IMG/VR virus record: IMGVR_UViG_3300029126_000035
Direction: 5' to 3' (one strand)
From: a virus
Taxonomy: Duplodnaviria; Heunggongvirae; Uroviricota; Caudoviricetes
Length of the DNA: 11,426 nucleotides
Positions 485 through 10,617 of this stretch are shown here, piece by piece (the first letter of the stretch is position 1; the number at the start of each line of letters is the position of its first letter). A program made the translations under genes and the position numbers. The notes under the pieces are model-generated. The model made no database searches and was not told the origin of the DNA. It saw nothing but the letters and a program-made list of their open reading frames with translations.

Positions 485-1100
485 CCGCCCAGAAGAAGAT
501 ATTTTCACTGGCTGGTATGTCGCCAAAATCCGGCAATATGACAGCAAAGTCTGGCATTAATACAGCAGATACAAGCAAAGTTTATCATTTTCTGGTGGTA
601 GGAGCGGATACCTTAACTATGTCAGAAATTACGGTCGATGGTGTTAGCGTTGAGAAGGTCAGCGGCTGCGCCAGAGAATTTCTGGTCGTAGATCACCTGT
701 TCTGCTCGTGTAGTGACTCCACAAAAACATTCGTCCACGCGCGTGACGTTAACGAAATGAGCGCGATGTACTGTGCTTCTGGTTCTTCCAATAGTGAGTT
801 TTCGGAGTCCATAAAAAAGAGCTTGCCGTTATGCGGCAACACGGTTTATGGTTATAAGGCACCTCATAAAACGGGTGCCGGGATTAGGACCCCGCAGGCA
901 ATCGAGGCGATACATGACGCGCCAGCGTCTTTTTTTGTATCGGCGCACACGCACACCTTATCAATGGTGGGCTGTATGGGGCTGACTTCGGTCAGGCTGG
1001 TTTCCTTGATTGCCAGTAGTCCTAACCCTGTACAGTCCACCGCCAGCGAGCTTAGGACCTCCGGCGGTGGCTATAAACCATCAATCAAGGAGGCTGCCAC
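478..1100 (+). other. stop-free frame with strong RBS, coding status unresolved; structured leader region upstream of the small-gene operon
   Basis: ATG 478 preceded by GGAGG 465-469 (7 nt spacer); frame 1 has no stop from 478 to 1506, but beyond 1101 that frame is rich in rare codons (CTA, TTA, ATA, AGG) while the overlapping frame of 1101-1295 has good codon usage; region 850-1070 contains several stems and complementary motifs. Confidence 0.25.
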
Positions 1101-2778: not shown

Positions 2779-5535
2779 ATGCGAAACATTGATCTTATCC
2801 GTCAGGTTATCAGTGCGTCTGAAAACAACTGGCCTCATGTGCTGGGCTGCCTGAACATAAATGTCCCTGACTCTCCGCGCCGTCATGCTCCCTGCCCTGC
2901 ATGTGGGGGCAAAGATCGATTCCGGTTCGATGACAACGGGCGCGGTAGCTTCATCTGTAATCAGTGCGGCGCTGGTGATGGGCTGGATTTAATTAAACGC
3001 GTAAATAACTGCGACACAACAGAGGCGGCGCTTCTTGCCGCTGATGTTCTGGGTATTGATTACCGGACAACGGAAACACCAGAAGCCACCAGCCAGAAAC
3101 GGGAACAACTGGAAACCGAGCGCCAGCGACGCGAACAGGAGCGCCTGAAAAGGGCAGAGAAGGACGAACAACAAAGACGGGATACGTTTTCCCGTCAGTT
3201 TGATGACATGCGCAGAAAGGCTGTAAACGGCAAATCTGATTATCTGGTTGCGAAAGGGGTAGGTGATTTTACATTCCCCGTGTTGCCCGATGGATCTCTG
3301 TTGCTGGCGCTGGTGGATAAATCCGGCGCAGTCACAGCAGCACAGACTATTACCTCACATGGTGAAAAAAGACTCCTGACAGGTTCAGCAAAGCGGGGGG
3401 CATATCACGCCATAAACGCACCAGAAACAACACAGAGCATCTTAATCGCAGAAGGTCTGGCAACGGCATTATCTGCCCATTTAATTCGTCCAGAGGCGCT
3501 GACAGTGGCGGCGATTGATGCCGGGAACCTGTTATATGTCGCCCAGGTACTGCGGGATAAATTTCCTTCAGCACAAATCATCATTGCTGCGGATAACGAC
3601 CACAGCGAAGGAAGACAAAACACGGGGAGAATAGCAGCAGAAAAAGCAGCTTTATCTGTTTCTGGATGGGTGGCATTACCCCCGACAGATCACAAAGCAG
3701 ACTGGAATGATTACCACCAAAAACACGGCATTAAATGCGCCACAGAAGCGTTCAATAAGTCAATGTACCAACCACAGGGTAATGGCGTGAAACAGGAGCC
3801 ACAGACCATTGAGGGAAGCGATTTTAAGGTTATGGATACCGACCCACTGAAACCAAGAATAGAAAGCCGCGAGGATGGTATTTATTGGGTATCTCCGAGA
3901 GCTGACAGCCAGAGTGGAGAAATCATCAATAACGAAAGCTGGTTATGTTCTCCGTTAAGCGTTATCGGTACTGGCAGAGACGATAAAGACCAGTATCTCA
4001 TTCTTCGCTGGCTGTCGTTTGGTTCTGAAACGCCGACAACCGCTGCCATTCCACTGGCTGATATTGGTGAACGTGAAGGATGGCGCACACTTAAAGCTGG
4101 TGGGGTAAATGTCACGACCAAAAGCAGCCTCAGAGCAATACTGGCAGACTGGCTACAACGCAGTGGCTCTCGTGAATTGTGGCGTGTTGCTCATGCCACT
4201 GGCTGGCAATGCGGAGCGTACATCATGCCTGATGGGGAAATCATCGGAACACCTGAAAATCCTGTGCTGTTCAGCGGGAGAAGCTCAGCCGCAGCCGGAT
4301 ATACCGTCTCAGGGAGCGCGAAAAGCTGGCGTGATAACGTGGCGCGTCTGGCCTTTGGTAACTATTCAATGATGACCGGGATCGGCGCAGCACTGGCAGC
4401 GCCATTGATTGGGCTGGTGGGCGCTGACGGGTTCGGCATTCATTTCTATGAGCAGTCGAGCGCAGGTAAGACCACCACGGCAAACGTGGCGAGCAGCTTA
4501 TACGGCAACCCTGATTTACTGCGGCTGACGTGGTACGGAACCGCGCTGGGGCTGGCAAATGAGGCCGCCGCCCACAATGACGGACTAATGCCGCTTGATG
4601 AAGTTGGTCAGGGCGCTGATCCTGTCAGCGTTTCACAGTCTGCCTATGCGTTATTTAACGGTGTAGGGAAACTGCAAGGCGCTAAAGATGGTGGAAACCG
4701 GGATCTAAAACGCTGGCGTACAGTGGCAATCAGCACCGGAGAAATGGATTTAGAAACATTTATCGCTACTTCCGGGCGAAAAACCAAAGCCGGGCAACTG
4801 GTGCGACTGCTGAATATTCCGTTGAGTAAAGCAGTACGCTTTCACGATTACCAGAACGGAAAACAGCACGCAGACGCACTGAAAGACGCTTACCAGCATC
4901 ACCACGGCGCGTCCGGGCGTGAGTGGATTAAATGGCTGGCACACCACCAGCAACAGGCTATTAAAACCGTTCGTGATTGCGAAAGCAGATGGAGAAGCCT
5001 GATCCCATCCGATTATGGTGAGCAGGTTCACCGTGTAGCCGCGCGATTTGCCATTCTGGAGGCAGCATTGCTGTTAGGCGAAGTTGTAACAGGCTGGGAT
5101 GCTCAGACATGCCGTGATGCGATACAGCACAGCTATAACGCATGGTTGCGCGAGTTCGGCACAGGTAACAAAGAACATCAGCAGATTATTGAACAAACGG
5201 AGGCATTTCTTAATGCCTATGGGCTTAGCCGTTTTGCACCATTTCCATACAGCCCGGCAGATTTGCCCATCAAAGATTTAGCCGGATACCGTCAGCGTGG
5301 AGAACATGACGAAAGCCCAATGATTTTCTACACATTCCCGGCCACATTTGAAAAGGAGATCGCATGTGGTTTCAACGCAAAACAGTTTGCTGAAGTGTTG
5401 AAAAAAGCCGGGATGCTAACCCCACCAAACAGCGGTCGTGGATACCAAAGAAAATCACCACGTATTCAGGGACGACAAACAAACGTTTATGTACTCAATT
5501 ACCAGCCAGGAGATTATAACTCATCTGAAGAATGA
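2779..5535 (+). CDS. P4 alpha-type DNA primase-helicase (zinc-ribbon + Toprim primase, P-loop helicase, C-terminal domain)
   Basis: CPAC...CNQC zinc-ribbon pattern (nt 2893-2967); Toprim-like IAEG (E225) and AADNDH (D272/D274, nt 3592-3600); Walker A SSAGKTT (K564 at nt 4468-4470); Walker B-like LMPLDE; 918 aa; iterons immediately downstream. Confidence 0.93.
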   Translation: MRNIDLIRQVISASENNWPHVLGCLNINVPDSPRRHAPCPACGGKDRFRFDDNGRGSFICNQCGAGDGLDLIKRVNNCDTTEAALLAADVLGIDYRTTETPEATSQKREQLETERQRREQERLKRAEKDEQQRRDTFSRQFDDMRRKAVNGKSDYLVAKGVGDFTFPVLPDGSLLLALVDKSGAVTAAQTITSHGEKRLLTGSAKRGAYHAINAPETTQSILIAEGLATALSAHLIRPEALTVAAIDAGNLLYVAQVLRDKFPSAQIIIAADNDHSEGRQNTGRIAAEKAALSVSGWVALPPTDHKADWNDYHQKHGIKCATEAFNKSMYQPQGNGVKQEPQTIEGSDFKVMDTDPLKPRIESREDGIYWVSPRADSQSGEIINNESWLCSPLSVIGTGRDDKDQYLILRWLSFGSETPTTAAIPLADIGEREGWRTLKAGGVNVTTKSSLRAILADWLQRSGSRELWRVAHATGWQCGAYIMPDGEIIGTPENPVLFSGRSSAAAGYTVSGSAKSWRDNVARLAFGNYSMMTGIGAALAAPLIGLVGADGFGIHFYEQSSAGKTTTANVASSLYGNPDLLRLTWYGTALGLANEAAAHNDGLMPLDEVGQGADPVSVSQSAYALFNGVGKLQGAKDGGNRDLKRWRTVAISTGEMDLETFIATSGRKTKAGQLVRLLNIPLSKAVRFHDYQNGKQHADALKDAYQHHHGASGREWIKWLAHHQQQAIKTVRDCESRWRSLIPSDYGEQVHRVAARFAILEAALLLGEVVTGWDAQTCRDAIQHSYNAWLREFGTGNKEHQQIIEQTEAFLNAYGLSRFAPFPYSPADLPIKDLAGYRQRGEHDESPMIFYTFPATFEKEIACGFNAKQFAEVLKKAGMLTPPNSGRGYQRKSPRIQGRQTNVYVLNYQPGDYNSSEE

Positions 5536-5560: not shown

Positions 5561-5672
5561 GTTGGTTCAGTTGGTTCAGTTGGTTCAATTTGCAAAGAGT
5601 ATTGTTTTGTAAGGATTTTATTCTTTTTATTGAACCAACACTGAACCAACAACACGGTATTTTGAACCAACA
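5561..5672. repeat. iteron array, probable replication origin: 3 direct GTTGGTTCA copies, AT-rich spacer, 3 inverted TGAACCAAC copies
   Basis: Perfect 9-mers at 5561-5569, 5570-5578, 5579-5587 and inverted copies at 5631-5639, 5642-5650, 5664-5672; 43-bp AT-rich spacer at 5588-5630; starts 25 bp after the primase stop. Confidence 0.75.
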
Positions 5673-5767
5673 CAATGTGACTGAATTGATGAGCACAACA
5701 TCTGGCTGGCATTAGAGAGTGTTTTACGAAATCTGAACACCACATCACTGGTTTCAGTGGGAGATTG

Positions 5768-6226
5768 ATGATGAAGATAATCGCAAAGGCTTTTCATCAT
5801 GTATTTGGCAAAGTATCCGATTTGCCATCTGTAATACCGATGAACAACAGAAGGGAGATGCTGCTTGATGTGGTTGTGTTCCCATACATAGACCTTTCTG
5901 AACCAATGAAAGCAACTCTTTTCAGAAAGTATCTTGGCGACTTTAAACGCCGTTTTACAGGCGTTAACGGGATGGTTGATATCTGCTCCATCAGAGATAT
6001 TGTTGAACTTGCAGGGATTAATTTGTGGGGAGAAGCGGCAGCAGCATACAAATGGCTTGAACGCCTGCACTGTGTTTCATTCAGTGACATGAGTGCTGAT
6101 ATCGCTTTAATGGTTCCTCACAAAATCAATATGGTCTTTGCTGGTGGCAATTACACTTATCCATGGAACCAGGAACAAAGAGAGAACAGGAAAGCTCACG
6201 CCATGAAGAGTAATGCGACTCCATAA
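5768..6226 (+). CDS. hypothetical protein (152 aa), AT-rich gene between origin and cargo operon
   Basis: ATG at 5768/5771 preceded by GGGAG 5759-5763; followed by a rho-independent terminator; the antisense 147-aa ORF is Cys/His/Trp-rich and looks spurious. Confidence 0.6.
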   Translation: MMKIIAKAFHHVFGKVSDLPSVIPMNNRREMLLDVVVFPYIDLSEPMKATLFRKYLGDFKRRFTGVNGMVDICSIRDIVELAGINLWGEAAAAYKWLERLHCVSFSDMSADIALMVPHKINMVFAGGNYTYPWNQEQRENRKAHAMKSNATP

Positions 6227-6279
6227 ATATAGTTTTTAGAGTCCATAAAAAAACTGTCAAAACCTGACATACAGAACGA

Positions 6280-6311
6280 TGCCACCAGCTACTGAACGGT
6301 GGCATTTTTTT
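6280..6311 (+). terminator. rho-independent terminator
   Basis: Stem TGCCACC (6280-6286) / GGTGGCA (6298-6304) followed by a T7 run at 6305-6311. Confidence 0.7.
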
Positions 6312-6367
6312 GTGCTATTTGTTTCATATTTTGCAATCACAATGATGAATGTTGCGTTTTATGAAAC

Positions 6368-6391
6368 TATAATGACTGTTGTTTTATACAG
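6368..6391 (+). promoter_or_regulatory. candidate SOS-regulated promoter: -10 TATAAT followed by LexA-box-like CTGT-N8-ACAG
   Basis: TATAAT at 6368-6373; CTGTTGTTTTATACAG at 6376-6391 matches the LexA consensus CTGT-(AT-rich 8)-ACAG; RBS AAGGGGG at 6396-6402 and ATG at 6407; -35 is weak. Confidence 0.5.
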
Positions 6392-6406: not shown

Positions 6407-6580
6407 ATGGCTATTTCAGTAAAGCCAGTATTGATAAGTGAGAAGCAAATGGAAGCGATAAAGAAAATTCAGGAGGAGCAGCGTAAAAAATCAGAGGTAG
6501 GAGTTGCGCCAACGATCCACGAAATTGCTCGGGGATTAATGGATAAGGCGCTGGCTTACACTTTAACTGGACGTGGGTAA
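6407..6580 (+). CDS. small protein (57 aa), possible ribbon-helix-helix DNA-binding protein
   Basis: Not in the ORF track (under 60 aa) but a clean ATG-to-TAA frame with RBS; N-terminal strand-like VKPVLIS followed by two helical segments fits an RHH layout; first gene after the SOS-box promoter. Confidence 0.5.
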   Translation: MAISVKPVLISEKQMEAIKKIQEEQRKKSEVGVAPTIHEIARGLMDKALAYTLTGRG

Positions 6581-6584
6581 ATTT

Positions 6585-8051
6585 ATGGCTACGTGGCAAC
6601 AGGGTATTAATTCTGGTGGTTTTCTGGCTGGCATCGGTACGCAAAATGAGAATGCGCCAAAGGCAAGCGACATTAACGCAACGCTTGGTCTGATCCGCGA
6701 AAACAATGAACTGGCTCGCTCAGGTGCAAATAACGTTGCTCTGACAGGTCTTCGTGGTCTGGCTGGAGTTGCTGATATTTATAAGCAGCAGCAACAGCAG
6801 GAGCGTAAAGCGGCATTCCAGAAAGGTTATGCAGATGCTTATGCGTCCGGTGACAGGGAGCAGATGCGTAATCTTATTACAGCATTCCCAGAAGAGTTTG
6901 AGGAAGTCCGTAAAGGGATGAGTTATGTCGATGATGCTCAAAGGGATGATTATGGCAATCTGGCGCTCAAAGCACAGGTAGCCTCATCGCTTGGTCCGGG
7001 CGCATTTGGCAGGTTCATGATAGATAATGAGCAGGAGATGCGTCGTTTAGGTATCCCTCCAGAAACTATTGCTGAAATGCAGGTTAATGACCCGCAGGGC
7101 TTCCAGCATTTCGCAGGTAATCTGGCGCTGTTTTCTCTCGGTCATGAGAAGTATTTCGATATCAAAGATCAAATGGAAGGTCGGGATATTGAGCGTGGCA
7201 AGTTGGCAGAGACAATCCGCAGCAATCAGGCCAGCGAAGCACTTCAGGCGAGAGGGCAGGATATTAGCCGAGCAAATGCGTTAACGTCAGCATATGCACC
7301 AACAGCAGCAATGCAGAATTACAATCAGTACGCGCAAATGTTAAAGGTGGATCCAGAGGGGGCGGCGGCATTTGCGGCAGCGGCTGGAATTAATACAAAC
7401 GCCAAAAAATTAATGAGTGTTAGAGAAAACGATGATGGCACTGTCACAAAATACTACACAGACGGAAGTGAAGAGCAGGGAAAACTAAACCAGCCAATAT
7501 CTGGAGATGGGTTTCGTCCAATAGCTTTGCCAACAGCCCAAAAGATCATGGAAAAGTCGCCAGAAGGGGCTAAAAAAGCTGCTGGATTTGCATACAGGGT
7601 TAGGGATGCTCTTGATTCAATGGATACACTGAAAGACCAGCTTAGCCCACAGCGAGTGGCGGTCATTAATAATGCTTTGGGTAATGGGACGCTGGCTAAC
7701 TTAACGCTCAGCCCAACAGAGCAGCAATACGTTGTTAATGCTAATGACGCAATAATGGCAATACTCCGTCAGGAAACAGGGGCAGCTATCGTACCTGCTG
7801 AAATGTCAAAATATTATCAAATGTATTTCCCTCAGCCTGGCGACTCCACAAAAACCATTGATACCAAGCGCCGGAAGATGGAAAACCAGTTCAATTCGCT
7901 GAAAGCTGCTTCTGGTCGAGCTTATGATGCTTTGCGGGTTATTTCAGCAGTTGACAGAGGAACTTCTTCTTCGTCGCAGACATTGCCGCAATCTGAGCAG
8001 GTATCACAGCCAGCAGCCAGCAGTAACTTTTCTTCACTATGGGGTGATTAA
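6585..8051 (+). CDS. hypothetical large helical protein (488 aa), Ala/Gln/Glu-rich, unknown function
   Basis: ATG 6585 lies 4 nt after the stop of the small gene (alternative GTG at 6573); polyQ run KQQQQQ; no P-loop or catalytic motif I recognise; stop overlaps the next start (TAATG). Confidence 0.8.
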   Translation: MATWQQGINSGGFLAGIGTQNENAPKASDINATLGLIRENNELARSGANNVALTGLRGLAGVADIYKQQQQQERKAAFQKGYADAYASGDREQMRNLITAFPEEFEEVRKGMSYVDDAQRDDYGNLALKAQVASSLGPGAFGRFMIDNEQEMRRLGIPPETIAEMQVNDPQGFQHFAGNLALFSLGHEKYFDIKDQMEGRDIERGKLAETIRSNQASEALQARGQDISRANALTSAYAPTAAMQNYNQYAQMLKVDPEGAAAFAAAAGINTNAKKLMSVRENDDGTVTKYYTDGSEEQGKLNQPISGDGFRPIALPTAQKIMEKSPEGAKKAAGFAYRVRDALDSMDTLKDQLSPQRVAVINNALGNGTLANLTLSPTEQQYVVNANDAIMAILRQETGAAIVPAEMSKYYQMYFPQPGDSTKTIDTKRRKMENQFNSLKAASGRAYDALRVISAVDRGTSSSSQTLPQSEQVSQPAASSNFSSLWGD

Positions 8052-10156
8052 TGGCTAAAGCATGGAAAGATGTTATCGCCTCTCCACAGTATCAGGCGTT
8101 AGCACCAGAACAAAAAGCGCAGGCTCAGGAGCAATACTTCAATGAAGTCGTTGCCCCGCAAGCCGGAGAAAGTGTAGAGCAGGCTAAGCAGGCTTTTTAT
8201 GCTGCCTATCCACTACCATCAACGAATGAAATAGACCGATACCAATCAGCAACTCAAAATATTCAACATACATCATCTGATAATTCTCTTGCGTCAGGGT
8301 ATGCAAAGTTAGCTACTCAGCAAAGAGAGGGGCTTGAGCGTTCAGCAGAACAGGGAGCCAGTCTTGGGGCTGCGATGCGCGATGCTATAACAGGCGAAAG
8401 CCGAATGACTCCAGAGATGGAGAGACTGCAAAATGTCGACCTTGCCCCAGAGTTAACCTCACTCAGCATGGATGCTCTAAAAGCTCGATGGTCTCAACTT
8501 TTCGGCTCTGACGCATCTCAGGAAAAGATTCTTCAGAGCATGGGAGCGAAATTAAGGCAGGATGAGAAGGGTAACACTATCGTTTCCCTGCCATCCGGTG
8601 ATTATGCTCTGAACAAGCCGGGTTTATCGCCGCAAGACGTGGCATCGTTTCTGGCTAATGCGCTGGCGTTTACACCAGCGGGCAGGGCCGGAACGGTGCT
8701 GGGGGCCATAGGGAAATCAGCAGCTACAGATTTAGCACTACAGGGAGCCACCAGCCTTGCTGGTGGAGAAGATATTGATCCGTTACAAACGGTAATTTCT
8801 GCTGGCATTGGCGGCATTGGTAAGGGGCTGGAGAATACAGCGAGTGCGGTTTCGAGGGCTGTTCGTGGTGATATGGCACCGGAAGCGAAAGCTGCTGTTG
8901 ATTTTGCATCGGAAAGAAACCTGCCGTTAATGACCAGTGACGTACTGAAAGATAAAAACACTGTGCAGAGTCTGGCCCAGAAAACAGGCGAAAAAATCCC
9001 TTTTTTTGGAACGGGTACGAACAGGTTGAATCAACAACAGGCACGGGAAAATCTGGTCAGAACATATAACGATGGTCTGGGAGGCATTTCAGATAAACAG
9101 CTTTATGAATCTGCGACTAAAGGGCAGCAAAAATTCATTGAGGCCGCAGGAAAGCGATATAACCGCATAATTGACGCTATGGGGGATACCCCTGTCGATC
9201 TCTCAAACACGGTAAAAGCTATCGACAATCAGATTGCCGTGTTAAGCCGCCCGGGCAAATCTCAGGATAGAGCCGCGGTAAAAGTCTTGCAGCAATTTAA
9301 AGACGATATCACCAGCGGACCAAATGACCTGCGTCTGGCGAGAGAAAACAGAACTGACCTTCGAAAGCGGTTCATGAATTCAAACGAGACAGTTGATAAA
9401 GACACGCTCCAGAAAGCCAGCGATATTGTCTACAAGGCATATACGCTGGATATGAGAAGGGCAGTAGCCCAGAAACTGGGTTCAGAAGAAGCAGCCAATA
9501 TGGCAAGGGTCGATCGCTCATGGTCTAAATTCAATGACATGATGGGAAGAACGCGCGTTCAGAAGGCAATAGCCAGCGGCAAGGCTACGCCTGAGGATGT
9601 AACAAAACTCGTTTTTAGCCAAAGCTCATCAGAACGTTCTCAGCTTTACAGGCTTCTGGATGACAACGGCAGGCAGAACGCACGGGCAGCCATAATACAG
9701 AATGCTGTAGATAAGGCGACTGATTCGGCGGGGAATATCAGCGTTGAGAAGTTTATTAACACGCTACACCGGAACAGAAAGCAATCCGCAACGTTCTTTA
9801 AGGGCGTGCACGGAAAGGAACTGGACGGCATTATTAAATACCTCAACGATACCAGACAGGCGGCAAAGGTTGACGGTCAGAAATTAAACAGCCAGAAACT
9901 TTATGGCCTGCTGGTTGGTGGAGGCGCTATAAATGCGGCAGTTCTGGCGGGGATGCTGAAAACGGCTGCGTTTGTTGTTCCTGCTGCAGGTGCCGTAGGC
10001 GGAGCAGCGAAGGCATACGAAAGCCCTGTTATACGAAATGCCTTGTTACGTCTGGCAAATACGCCAAAAGGTAGCACAGCATATGACAGAGCGATCAGTA
10101 CGGTCACACAATCACTGACCACAGCAGCACAAGCATCGCAAAAGGAAGCTCAATAA
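8051..10156 (+). CDS. hypothetical large protein (701 aa) with C-terminal Gly/Ala-rich hydrophobic hairpin, unknown function
   Basis: ATG 8051 overlaps upstream stop; Ala/Gln/Lys-rich helical composition; hydrophobic segment LYGLLVGGGAINAAVLAGMLKTAAFVVPAAGAVGGAA at residues ~616-656 (nt 9896-10018); no canonical Walker A. Confidence 0.85.
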   Translation: MAKAWKDVIASPQYQALAPEQKAQAQEQYFNEVVAPQAGESVEQAKQAFYAAYPLPSTNEIDRYQSATQNIQHTSSDNSLASGYAKLATQQREGLERSAEQGASLGAAMRDAITGESRMTPEMERLQNVDLAPELTSLSMDALKARWSQLFGSDASQEKILQSMGAKLRQDEKGNTIVSLPSGDYALNKPGLSPQDVASFLANALAFTPAGRAGTVLGAIGKSAATDLALQGATSLAGGEDIDPLQTVISAGIGGIGKGLENTASAVSRAVRGDMAPEAKAAVDFASERNLPLMTSDVLKDKNTVQSLAQKTGEKIPFFGTGTNRLNQQQARENLVRTYNDGLGGISDKQLYESATKGQQKFIEAAGKRYNRIIDAMGDTPVDLSNTVKAIDNQIAVLSRPGKSQDRAAVKVLQQFKDDITSGPNDLRLARENRTDLRKRFMNSNETVDKDTLQKASDIVYKAYTLDMRRAVAQKLGSEEAANMARVDRSWSKFNDMMGRTRVQKAIASGKATPEDVTKLVFSQSSSERSQLYRLLDDNGRQNARAAIIQNAVDKATDSAGNISVEKFINTLHRNRKQSATFFKGVHGKELDGIIKYLNDTRQAAKVDGQKLNSQKLYGLLVGGGAINAAVLAGMLKTAAFVVPAAGAVGGAAKAYESPVIRNALLRLANTPKGSTAYDRAISTVTQSLTTAAQASQKEAQ

Positions 10157-10218: not shown

Positions 10219-10617
10219 TTAACACTTGCCTTTAACATTGCCGACAAATGAGCCTGTAAATGAGCCTATATCAGATCGACTAATTGTTCGTGTATGGATC
10301 ACTTTTCCGTCATTTGAGATTGCCCATGTGACAAGCGTCAGTTGACCATCTCGATAGCTTCTTCCCATCATGGCATTCGGAGATAGCGGGTAATAATCAA
10401 TACCTCCACCTATACCATCTTTTGCCAAGATAAGATCCGCCTTCTCTTTACTTATTACCAAATGAAAGGTATCTGGTATAGATGATAACTTATAGTTATA
10501 CCCATCTGAACTTGAGGCTTCTTGTCCTTTCAGATCACCAATAATCCAGCATTCAGCGTTCGCTCCAAAAGAAGCAAATAATAAACCGGAGACAACCAAT
10601 CGCTTCAATTGATTCAC
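10219..10617 (-). CDS. small Sec-exported (periplasmic) protein, mature ~111 aa, with N- and C-terminal cysteines
   Basis: GTG start at 10617 preceded by AGGGAGG; signal peptide MNQLKRLVVSGLLFASFGANA with ANA-E cleavage motif; no transmembrane stretch in mature part; the longer in-frame ORF up to 10905 is a probable shadow. Confidence 0.65.
   Translation of the reverse strand: MNQLKRLVVSGLLFASFGANAECWIIGDLKGQEASSSDGYNYKLSSIPDTFHLVISKEKADLILAKDGIGGGIDYYPLSPNAMMGRSYRDGQLTLVTWAISNDGKVIHTRTISRSDIGSFTGSFVGNVKGKC

Follow-up and report, generated by a model that had tools for sequence, protein, structure and literature searches.

In P22, the proteins gp7, gp20, and gp16 are packaged in the head, ejected first, and build a trans-envelope conduit (PMC8402733, PMC10883804). 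For incorporation, an N-terminal fragment of gp20 is enough, and the ejection proteins enter independently of one another and in a scaffold-dependent manner, through N-terminal parts (PMC8402733). Mosaic variation of genes 16 and 20 is known for P22-like phages; gp7 is conserved, gp16 and gp20 are the variable pair relevant to SieA, with escape mutations from SieA in the C-terminal region of each, and foreign, very different ejection proteins are tolerated and functional in P22 (PMC10883804). Here, we describe a three-gene module of this kind (positions 6407-10156) in IMG/VR record IMGVR_UViG_3300029126_000035, a stretch of 11,426 nt (the window) that forms part of an island of about 16.5 kb between yicC and dinD. 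The module comprises a gene for a 57-aa protein followed by genes for 488-aa and 701-aa proteins. On balance, it is probably the virion operon of a satellite resembling the phage-inducible chromosomal islands (PICIs), which would parasitize P22-like (Lederbergvirus) podophages and supply its own injection conduit to helper particles, a reading reached by inference.

The closest satellites described are the PICI-like elements (PLEs) of Vibrio, whose tape measure protein (TMP), tail assembly chaperone (TAC), and hub go selectively into chimeric tails and are required for transduction; PLE11 also blocks the helper TMP, and tmp genes have been noted in capsid-forming PICIs (cf-PICIs) (PMC12987554). 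EPIP satellites carry a TMP as well (PMC12822802). Like the PLEs (PMC12987554), the present island has no virion of its own and, as read from its gene content, carries replacements for helper delivery or tail-core proteins. Relatives of the island hold a TMP and a baseplate hub in the same slot, and a 108-aa open reading frame (ORF; phrog_19131) before some of these TMPs is a candidate chaperone. In contrast, the PLEs belong to another satellite family and host, and their helper ICP1 is a lytic myophage, whereas the presumed helper here is a temperate podophage. Internal ejection proteins take the place of the tape measure here, and no Rta-like inhibitor was identified. In the full-text literature searched, outside which most subscription journals lie, no paper described podophage ejection proteins encoded by a satellite or a family-wide slot for delivery proteins. 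Both would extend a concept published for PLEs in 2025-2026 only.

The three ORFs were found, all on the plus strand, where the first-pass annotation, made from the sequence without database searches, had placed them. The 57-aa gene stops 4 nt before the 488-aa gene starts, and the two large genes overlap in the TAATG at 8049-8053 as described. A mechanical start of the 488-aa gene at GTG 6573 would give 492 aa; ATG 6585, the start used by RefSeq/PGAP, gives 488 aa and the N-terminus MATWQQGINSGG (beginning MATWQQ), which is common to phage gp20. Both large proteins are rich in Ala (13.5-14%) and Gln (7-8%); Lys makes up 6.7% of the 701-aa protein and Glu 5.9% of the 488-aa protein.

The 488-aa protein matched Pfam PF16928 (Inj_translocase, P22 gp20) with an E-value of 1.5e-84 and 283.5 bits against a gathering cutoff of 29.7. 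This match spans profile positions 1-217 of 218, the N-terminal domain, and the match to phrog_917 is full-length and collinear (positions 1-504 of 509, E=1.1e-143). Compared with gp20 of Salmonella phage ST104, residues 1-67 differ at one position, the first 236 residues are 53% identical, and the remainder could not be aligned by BLASTP. Against individual phages, BLASTP aligned the N-terminal half alone, at 53-54% identity. For residues 50-455, the top match among isolated phages was to the APSE phages (51%), which were also best for the C-terminal part.

The 701-aa protein matched phrog_770 ('DNA transfer protein') over positions 3-667 of 668 (E=2.4e-155). Residues 61-701 are 89% identical (646 aa aligned) to gp16 of an intact P22-like prophage of E. 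coli at argW, which carries terL, portal, scaffold, coat, gp4, gp10, needle (gp26), gp14, and gp7. The identity to ST104 gp16 is 32% over the full length, with the first 55-60 residues or so nearly identical, and the top match among isolated phages was E. coli phage N7 (66%). RefSeq already uses the names 'phage DNA ejection protein', 'injection protein', and 'P22-gp16 family' for these genes. No hidden Markov model (HMM) of NCBIfam matched either large protein, and the PDB holds no sequence relative of either. By homology, both are ordinary members of known families, annotated as such already. The first-pass annotation had recognized no characterized family in them and had named clear homology to ejection proteins as what would speak against an undescribed module; since the homology to gp20 and gp16 is clear and RefSeq already names ejection and injection proteins, the claim of novelty does not hold for the proteins themselves.

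The likeness to the P22 pair extends to gene order, the overlapping stop and start codons, the near-identical N-termini, the mosaic variation, and the 89% identity of gp16 to that of the prophage. The surroundings are different. The island genes lie outside any virion cluster, in an island with integrase, AlpA, and primase; genes 14 and 7 sit with 20 and 16 in the phage, whereas the window variant is without both; and the phage genes belong to a late operon, whereas those of the island have their own LexA-box-like promoter and an island-specific small gene. Because the ejection genes stand in an island without other virion genes, the satellite probably fits helper particles with its own channel. 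The island gp16 is mosaic: its first 60 residues or so are of the P22/ST104 type, and the N-terminus of the argW prophage gp16 is of another type (8051-8230 of the window compared with 10425-10500 of locus L084), which suggests that P22-like gp16 has at least two interchangeable N-terminal modules.

The first-pass annotation had also called the element a satellite-type island with an origin just upstream of the module, and both statements were borne out. The island begins with a tyrosine integrase, a hypothetical gene, AlpA (PF05930, 26.5 bits against a cutoff of 21), a second hypothetical gene, AntA/B, DUF4222, the 'ash' region, and four small genes, and continues with a DUF927 primase, iterons (three GTTGGTTCA and three inverted copies right past the primase gene, as is typical of an iteron origin), orf153, the three-gene module, three minus-strand hypothetical genes, and PerC. 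No capsid, portal, terminase, tail, or lysis genes were found in the annotated island of about 16.5 kb, and P22-type terL, portal, coat, gp10, and tailspike are absent in all 81 loci that carry a homologue of the 57-aa gene. The same island backbone is also found at tRNA-Thr. The architecture is that of a PICI/P4-like satellite.

The PICI layout, with integrase, AlpA-type regulator, and pri-rep followed by the origin in one orientation, is present. Gram-negative PICIs such as EcCICFT073 share with the island the integrase, AlpA, pri, and origin and the packaging, interference, or accessory region after the origin (PMC6739421, PMC11364771), together with a size of about 15 kb and the absence of capsid and tail genes; EcCICFT073 has two packaging-site copies, and the island has two copies of a motif described below. 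However, no rpp, terS, or cos site was identified in the island, and it has an isrK/C4 RNA immunity region. PICIs are expected to have no structural or lysis genes, whereas two genes for virion-internal proteins, which PICIs 'typically do not encode' (PMC10085698), are present here. With P4-like satellites, the island shares the enterobacterial setting, a P4-type integrase arm domain, AlpA, a Toprim primase, and a C4-type antisense RNA. In contrast to P4, psu, delta, and sid are not annotated in the whole island, where no HMM search was aimed at them, the primase is DUF927-type, and the presumed helper is P22-like, not P2-like.

A scan of genome contigs with the 57-aa protein returned 4 loci and an IMG/VR scan far more; of the 81 related loci, seven have no upstream DUF927 primase, the stretch being cut by contig ends. 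The 57-aa gene is the first cassette gene in all 81 loci, and P22 ejection proteins follow it in 24. In 13 loci, the cargo is a T7_gp14-like protein with an 840-900-aa soluble lytic transglycosylase (SLT) protein and two more internal virion proteins, kin to podophage proteins of Stenotrophomonas, Pseudomonas, and Pelagibacter. Seven loci hold a 108-aa protein and a TMP of about 1,050-1,170 aa, reduced to a 210-aa N-terminal fragment in L008 and 857 aa long in L067. A 666-694-aa tape measure-SLT protein with Dit-like, hub, and further tail proteins occupies nine loci, and a 566-aa TMP-like SLT protein with a baseplate hub another nine; at least five of the latter have a 247-aa ORF, whose copy in L076 matches the small-terminase phrog_1482. 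A 605-aa TMP/transglycosylase-like protein accompanies a terS-like protein in eight loci, and a hub-like 337-aa protein a 238-aa protein in seven; three loci hold other cassettes, and one cassette is cut by a contig end.

Since the cargo behind the small gene is nearly always a delivery or tail-core component, this gene appears to head the virion and packaging operon of the island. The full P22 block of gp14 (DUF2824), gp7 (PF25688), gp20, and gp16 was found in sister islands of E. coli, Leclercia, and IMG/VR records (including L003 and L006), and gp20 with gp16 alone in the window type and in Serratia islands. Near-identical backbones carry different allele classes of gp16, such as the Sf101-like allele of L027. 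A wider proposal, which we put forward tentatively as a possibility, is that a widespread enterobacterial PICI-like family reserves one slot, often under SOS control, for an exchangeable genome-delivery cassette. According to the helper type, this would comprise podophage ejection proteins, T7-like internal virion proteins, or tape measure and hub proteins, and helper particles would be re-equipped by it with the satellite's own trans-envelope conduit.

At a coverage of at least 80%, the module is present in about 300 E. coli genomes and the window in about 264 complete ones. The island variants, which differ by dS 0.14-0.33, gave ratios of nonsynonymous to synonymous substitution rates (dN/dS) of 0.31-0.35 for gp20 and 0.08-0.16 for gp16, compared with 0.05-0.09 for the primase. 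Both ejection genes are full length and, on these ratios, selectively maintained. Such intactness, with dN/dS well below 1 at this level of divergence, argues against an inert remnant, that is, a fragment of P22-like prophage DNA which entered a P4/PICI-type island by recombination and persists there without function. A remnant would fit the presence of two of the four genes of the P22 14-7-20-16 block and the decaying relatives L004, L030, and L032, and clonality could account for many of the E. coli copies. However, two integration sites share the arrangement, which Serratia, Leclercia, and other genera have as well, and delivery cassettes of unrelated phage types share the slot, the conserved gene, and the promoter. 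We therefore regard a functionless remnant as quite improbable.

The first-pass annotation had placed the module under an SOS-like promoter, which is real as sequence: a TATAAT is followed by CTGTTGTTTTATACAG, and CTGT-N8-ACAG is kept across genera with variable spacers. In the window, CTGT-N8-ACAG occurs once against 0.14 expected, which is not significant by itself. At the same position, it was found with four different spacers in 25 of the 81 loci, including relatives in E. coli, Leclercia, Serratia, and Erwinia. The box carries weight because the -10 hexamer and the ribosome-binding site flank it and because this position is kept while the spacers vary. Over the -35 region lies an imperfect inverted repeat, a candidate operator, for which a strict regular expression matched 11 of the 81 loci. 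Conservation of the upstream region was read from an alignment (A1) of five loci from three genera. Operon I of the staphylococcal SaPI satellites, a packaging operon, is reportedly LexA-controlled, a finding attributed to Ubeda in 2007 (cited in PMC6739421). The likeness lies in a satellite morphogenesis or packaging operon under SOS control, which is putative here, from the box; the SaPIs are Gram-positive, and their operon has unrelated genes (terS and capsid-size proteins).

The same box would also suit an SOS-triggered membrane-active effector of the abortive-infection (Abi) or bacteriocin-like type, as the first-pass annotation had proposed, in which repurposed ejection proteins permeabilize the producing or target cell. 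Proteins of the gp16 family associate with membranes, although residues 476-609 of P22 gp16 are dispensable for this association in vitro (PMC10883804), and the gp16 of the island has a hydrophobic C-terminal stretch at about residues 617-650 (Kyte-Doolittle maximum over 19 residues, 1.73). However, the proteins come without a signal peptide or toxin domain and without a gene for lysis or immunity, their full-length collinearity with virion proteins is kept, assembly-related N-termini included, and the other cassettes of the slot (tape measure, hub) make sense in virions only. PADLOC gave no defence-model match for the three module proteins or for seven other island proteins. Of this proposal, the LexA-box-like promoter and the membrane activity known for the gp16 family stand, whereas the Abi or bacteriocin idea found no support, and we consider such an effector highly improbable. 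The proposal of capsid- or helper-redirecting scaffold proteins came nearer, as helper-related virion proteins are indeed encoded, but the proteins are of the ejection type rather than scaffolds or redirectors of the capsid.

A different kind of defence was weighed with the same data. The island gp20 and gp16 could act as poison subunits that make the progeny of infecting or induced P22-like phages non-infectious, giving population-level protection like Tai, Tab, and Rta rather than aiding island transfer. Dominant-negative interference is plausible because the slot right after the PICI pri is on record as a hotspot of defence genes, Tai tail-assembly inhibitors among them (PMC11364771). The neighboring variable genes in relatives include Abi_2 and RnlAB, the conserved N-termini would permit entry into foreign procapsids, and the C-terminal parts are divergent and mosaic. 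On the other side, sister islands have the complete gp14-gp7-gp20-gp16 set, and the gp16 looks like a working rather than a defective ejection protein because it is 89% identical to that of an intact prophage. P22 tolerates very different foreign ejection proteins (PMC10883804), a small terminase in the same operon of related islands points to a packaging or transfer operon, and the proteins had no PADLOC match. Poisoning of helper progeny is unlikely on this evidence.

A further link to the helper may lie in a 24-nt motif, GAGTTTTCGGAGTCCATAAAAAAG, of which the window has a first copy shared with phage terS genes and a second, partial copy. The first copy agrees at 22-23 of 24 positions with terS of Acinetobacter, Salmonella NM-3, and Klebsiella phages. 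The 14-nt core GAGTCCATAAAAAA recurs at 6239-6252, which makes two copies against 0.01 expected. The general form, (G/T)AGTTTTYRGAGTCCATAAAAARG, was found twice per island and always on the plus strand (the window and L003, L005, L006, L009-L011, L014, and L015). One copy lies just 5' of the isrK promoter region and the other about 170 nt 5' of the small gene, and islands of Escherichia, Leclercia, Serratia, and Erwinia keep the position and strand of both. The pac site of P22-like phages lies inside terS, which makes a pac mimic attractive; a regulatory site is the alternative, as both copies sit just upstream of promoters. The motif was also considered as a target of a C4-like antisense RNA and rejected, since the C4 region has AGTCC in the same sense and no complement of the motif.

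Under the satellite virion operon reading, the SOS response would remove LexA and induce the helper prophage too, and the satellite would make its own gp20 and gp16. With their phage-like N-termini, the proteins would enter helper procapsids by the scaffold-dependent route of phage ejection proteins and be packaged together with island DNA. In the next cell, ejected gp20 would form the periplasmic tube and gp16 the inner-membrane channel, together with helper gp7, and the island DNA would enter. The likely benefit would be a conduit chosen by the satellite that resists SieA-type superinfection exclusion or factors aimed at the helper conduit.

Several observations weigh against this operon reading. 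The window variant is without gp7 and gp14, both of which the helper would have to supply. A small terminase is absent from the island, and an element of approximately 16.5 kb would need multimer packaging in a headful capsid of about 43 kb. Satellite and helper particles would be made in the same cell, which leaves selective use of the satellite proteins without explanation. The exact LexA box is confined to 25 of the 81 loci, and a minority of copies are disrupted, by a deletion in L004, a short gp20 in L030, and a split gp16 in L032. The post-pri slot is a known defence hotspot with Tai systems (PMC11364771). Finally, a codon test of the motif across three diverged terS genes was weak, with identical codons at 5 of 7 positions inside the motif and 27 of 72 outside.

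Homologues of the 57-aa protein number 45 in the databases, spread over Escherichia, Serratia, Klebsiella, Erwinia, Raoultella, and Salmonella, whereas 50,697 phage records yielded none; the family alignments contain 17-21 invariant columns. The first-pass label of this protein as ribbon-helix-helix (RHH)-like found no backing: Pfam and a PDB profile search returned no match, Foldseek returned no significant one, and hhalign against the Arc protein of phage N7 gave a probability of 0.1%. The AlphaFold monomer has an extended N-terminus and helices at residues 12-28 and 37-53 (pLDDT 74), and the RHH ribbon forms in the dimer only. An RHH fold is accordingly kept as possible, not assigned. A hidden gp7 was also sought in the island and rejected, since neither the 57-aa nor the 153-aa ORF has similarity to gp7. 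The coordinates of all features are summarized in Table 1.

Table 1. Positions of the module, its promoter region, and other island features in the window.
Feature	Position (nt)	Strand	Basis or remark
isrK (859-935) and C4 antisense RNA (960-1047), RNA-based immunity region	859..1047	+	Rfam 63 and 80 bits, above gathering score
First copy of the 24-nt motif GAGTTTTCGGAGTCCATAAAAAAG	796..819	+	Exact identity over 25 nt (795-819) to terS of the E. coli P22-like phages CUS-3, N7, and phiv205-1
Zn-ribbon/Toprim/DUF927 primase-helicase, island replication gene	2779..5535	+	Pfam, PHROG; homologue upstream of the small gene in 74/81 loci
Origin-like iterons, 3 direct GTTGGTTCA and 3 inverted TGAACCAAC around an AT-rich spacer	5561..5673	.	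Directly past the primase stop
Second copy of the motif, 20/24 positions, 14-nt core GAGTCCATAAAAAA exact	6230..6253	+	Candidate pac-like or regulatory site
Intrinsic terminator between orf153 and the cassette promoter	6280..6310	+	Stem and T-run kept in A1
Imperfect inverted repeat TGCAAT-N13-GTTGCG, candidate operator over the -35 region	6332..6356	.	GCAAT...ATTGC in all 5 A1 loci
-10 hexamer TATAAT of the operon promoter	6368..6373	+	Invariant in A1; upstream of the small gene in 66/81 loci
LexA-box-like site CTGTTGTTTTATACAG	6376..6391	+	2 nt past TATAAT, before the ribosome-binding site
Conserved 57-aa leader gene of the cassette	6407..6580	+	ORF; 45 homologues; possibly a DNA-binding regulator
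P22 gp20-type ejection protein, 488 aa (predicted periplasmic tube of the injection conduit)	6585..8051	+	PF16928, phrog_917
P22 gp16-type ejection protein, 701 aa (predicted inner-membrane part of the conduit)	8051..10156	+	phrog_770, identity to prophage gp16

Other parts of the island were also inspected. A 342-aa ORF at 478-1506, named 'ash family protein' in RefSeq, overlaps isrK and C4. Its sole Pfam match, PF10554 (Phage_ASH) over residues 124-219 (847-1134 of the window), coincides with the two RNAs; the ORF is rich in Cys and Ser, and many other ORFs overlap it. In this case, the 'Ash' domain may be an RNA-immunity region in translation and no protein. Another, separate ORF, 64 aa long (1101-1295), has a strong ribosome-binding site. 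Between the origin and the cassette, orf153 (5768-6226) is 52% conserved in Leclercia (L006) and has its own terminator 3'; it had no match in Pfam, PHROG, NCBIfam, or PADLOC. Convergent with gp16, a 132-aa protein (10219-10617, minus strand) shows what looks like an N-terminal signal sequence (…LLFASFGANAEC…), and the thrW island L003 has the protein with 100% identity. It matches phrog_2651 and had no homology to anything characterized, and its place mirrors that of sieA after gene 16 in P22. The island genes 3' of gene 16 had no similarity to those 3' of gene 16 in phage N7.

Among relatives, the region 3' of gp16 is a variable hotspot (L009-L011 and L014) that holds Abi_2, RnlA/RnlB, and others. 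In Klebsiella and Raoultella relatives, a pair of AAA_15/AAA_21 ATPases lies on the opposite strand between the primase and the small gene (L012/L013, 7348-9330, minus strand; L016, 7384-9310, minus strand) and looks like a defence-type insertion. In L004 (E. coli E272, 11934-14466), a deletion joins codon 25 of the primase to the last 119 codons of gp20.

Theft of capsids, redirected packaging, and, lately, exchange of the helper TMP (PLEs, Nature 2026) are known from satellites. The present locus and its 80 relatives suggest that this logic extends to short-tailed phages and to a large family of enterobacterial satellites. SatelliteFinder allows no tail genes (PMC10085698), and satellite finders may miss this family because tail genes are forbidden or structural genes unexpected. 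If the reading is true, this would be the first case for a short-tailed phage, and replacement of delivery proteins would be a general satellite strategy beyond the Vibrio PLEs. Entry into cells whose helper prophage blocks injection by SieA-type exclusion would be one likely payoff, and the islands would offer a natural system for the determinants of ejection-protein incorporation and SieA sensitivity. Additionally, the extreme mosaic diversity that genes 16 and 20 show would in part be explained, and the spread of the islands and their adjacent defence genes among E. coli, Serratia, Klebsiella, and related genera would be affected.

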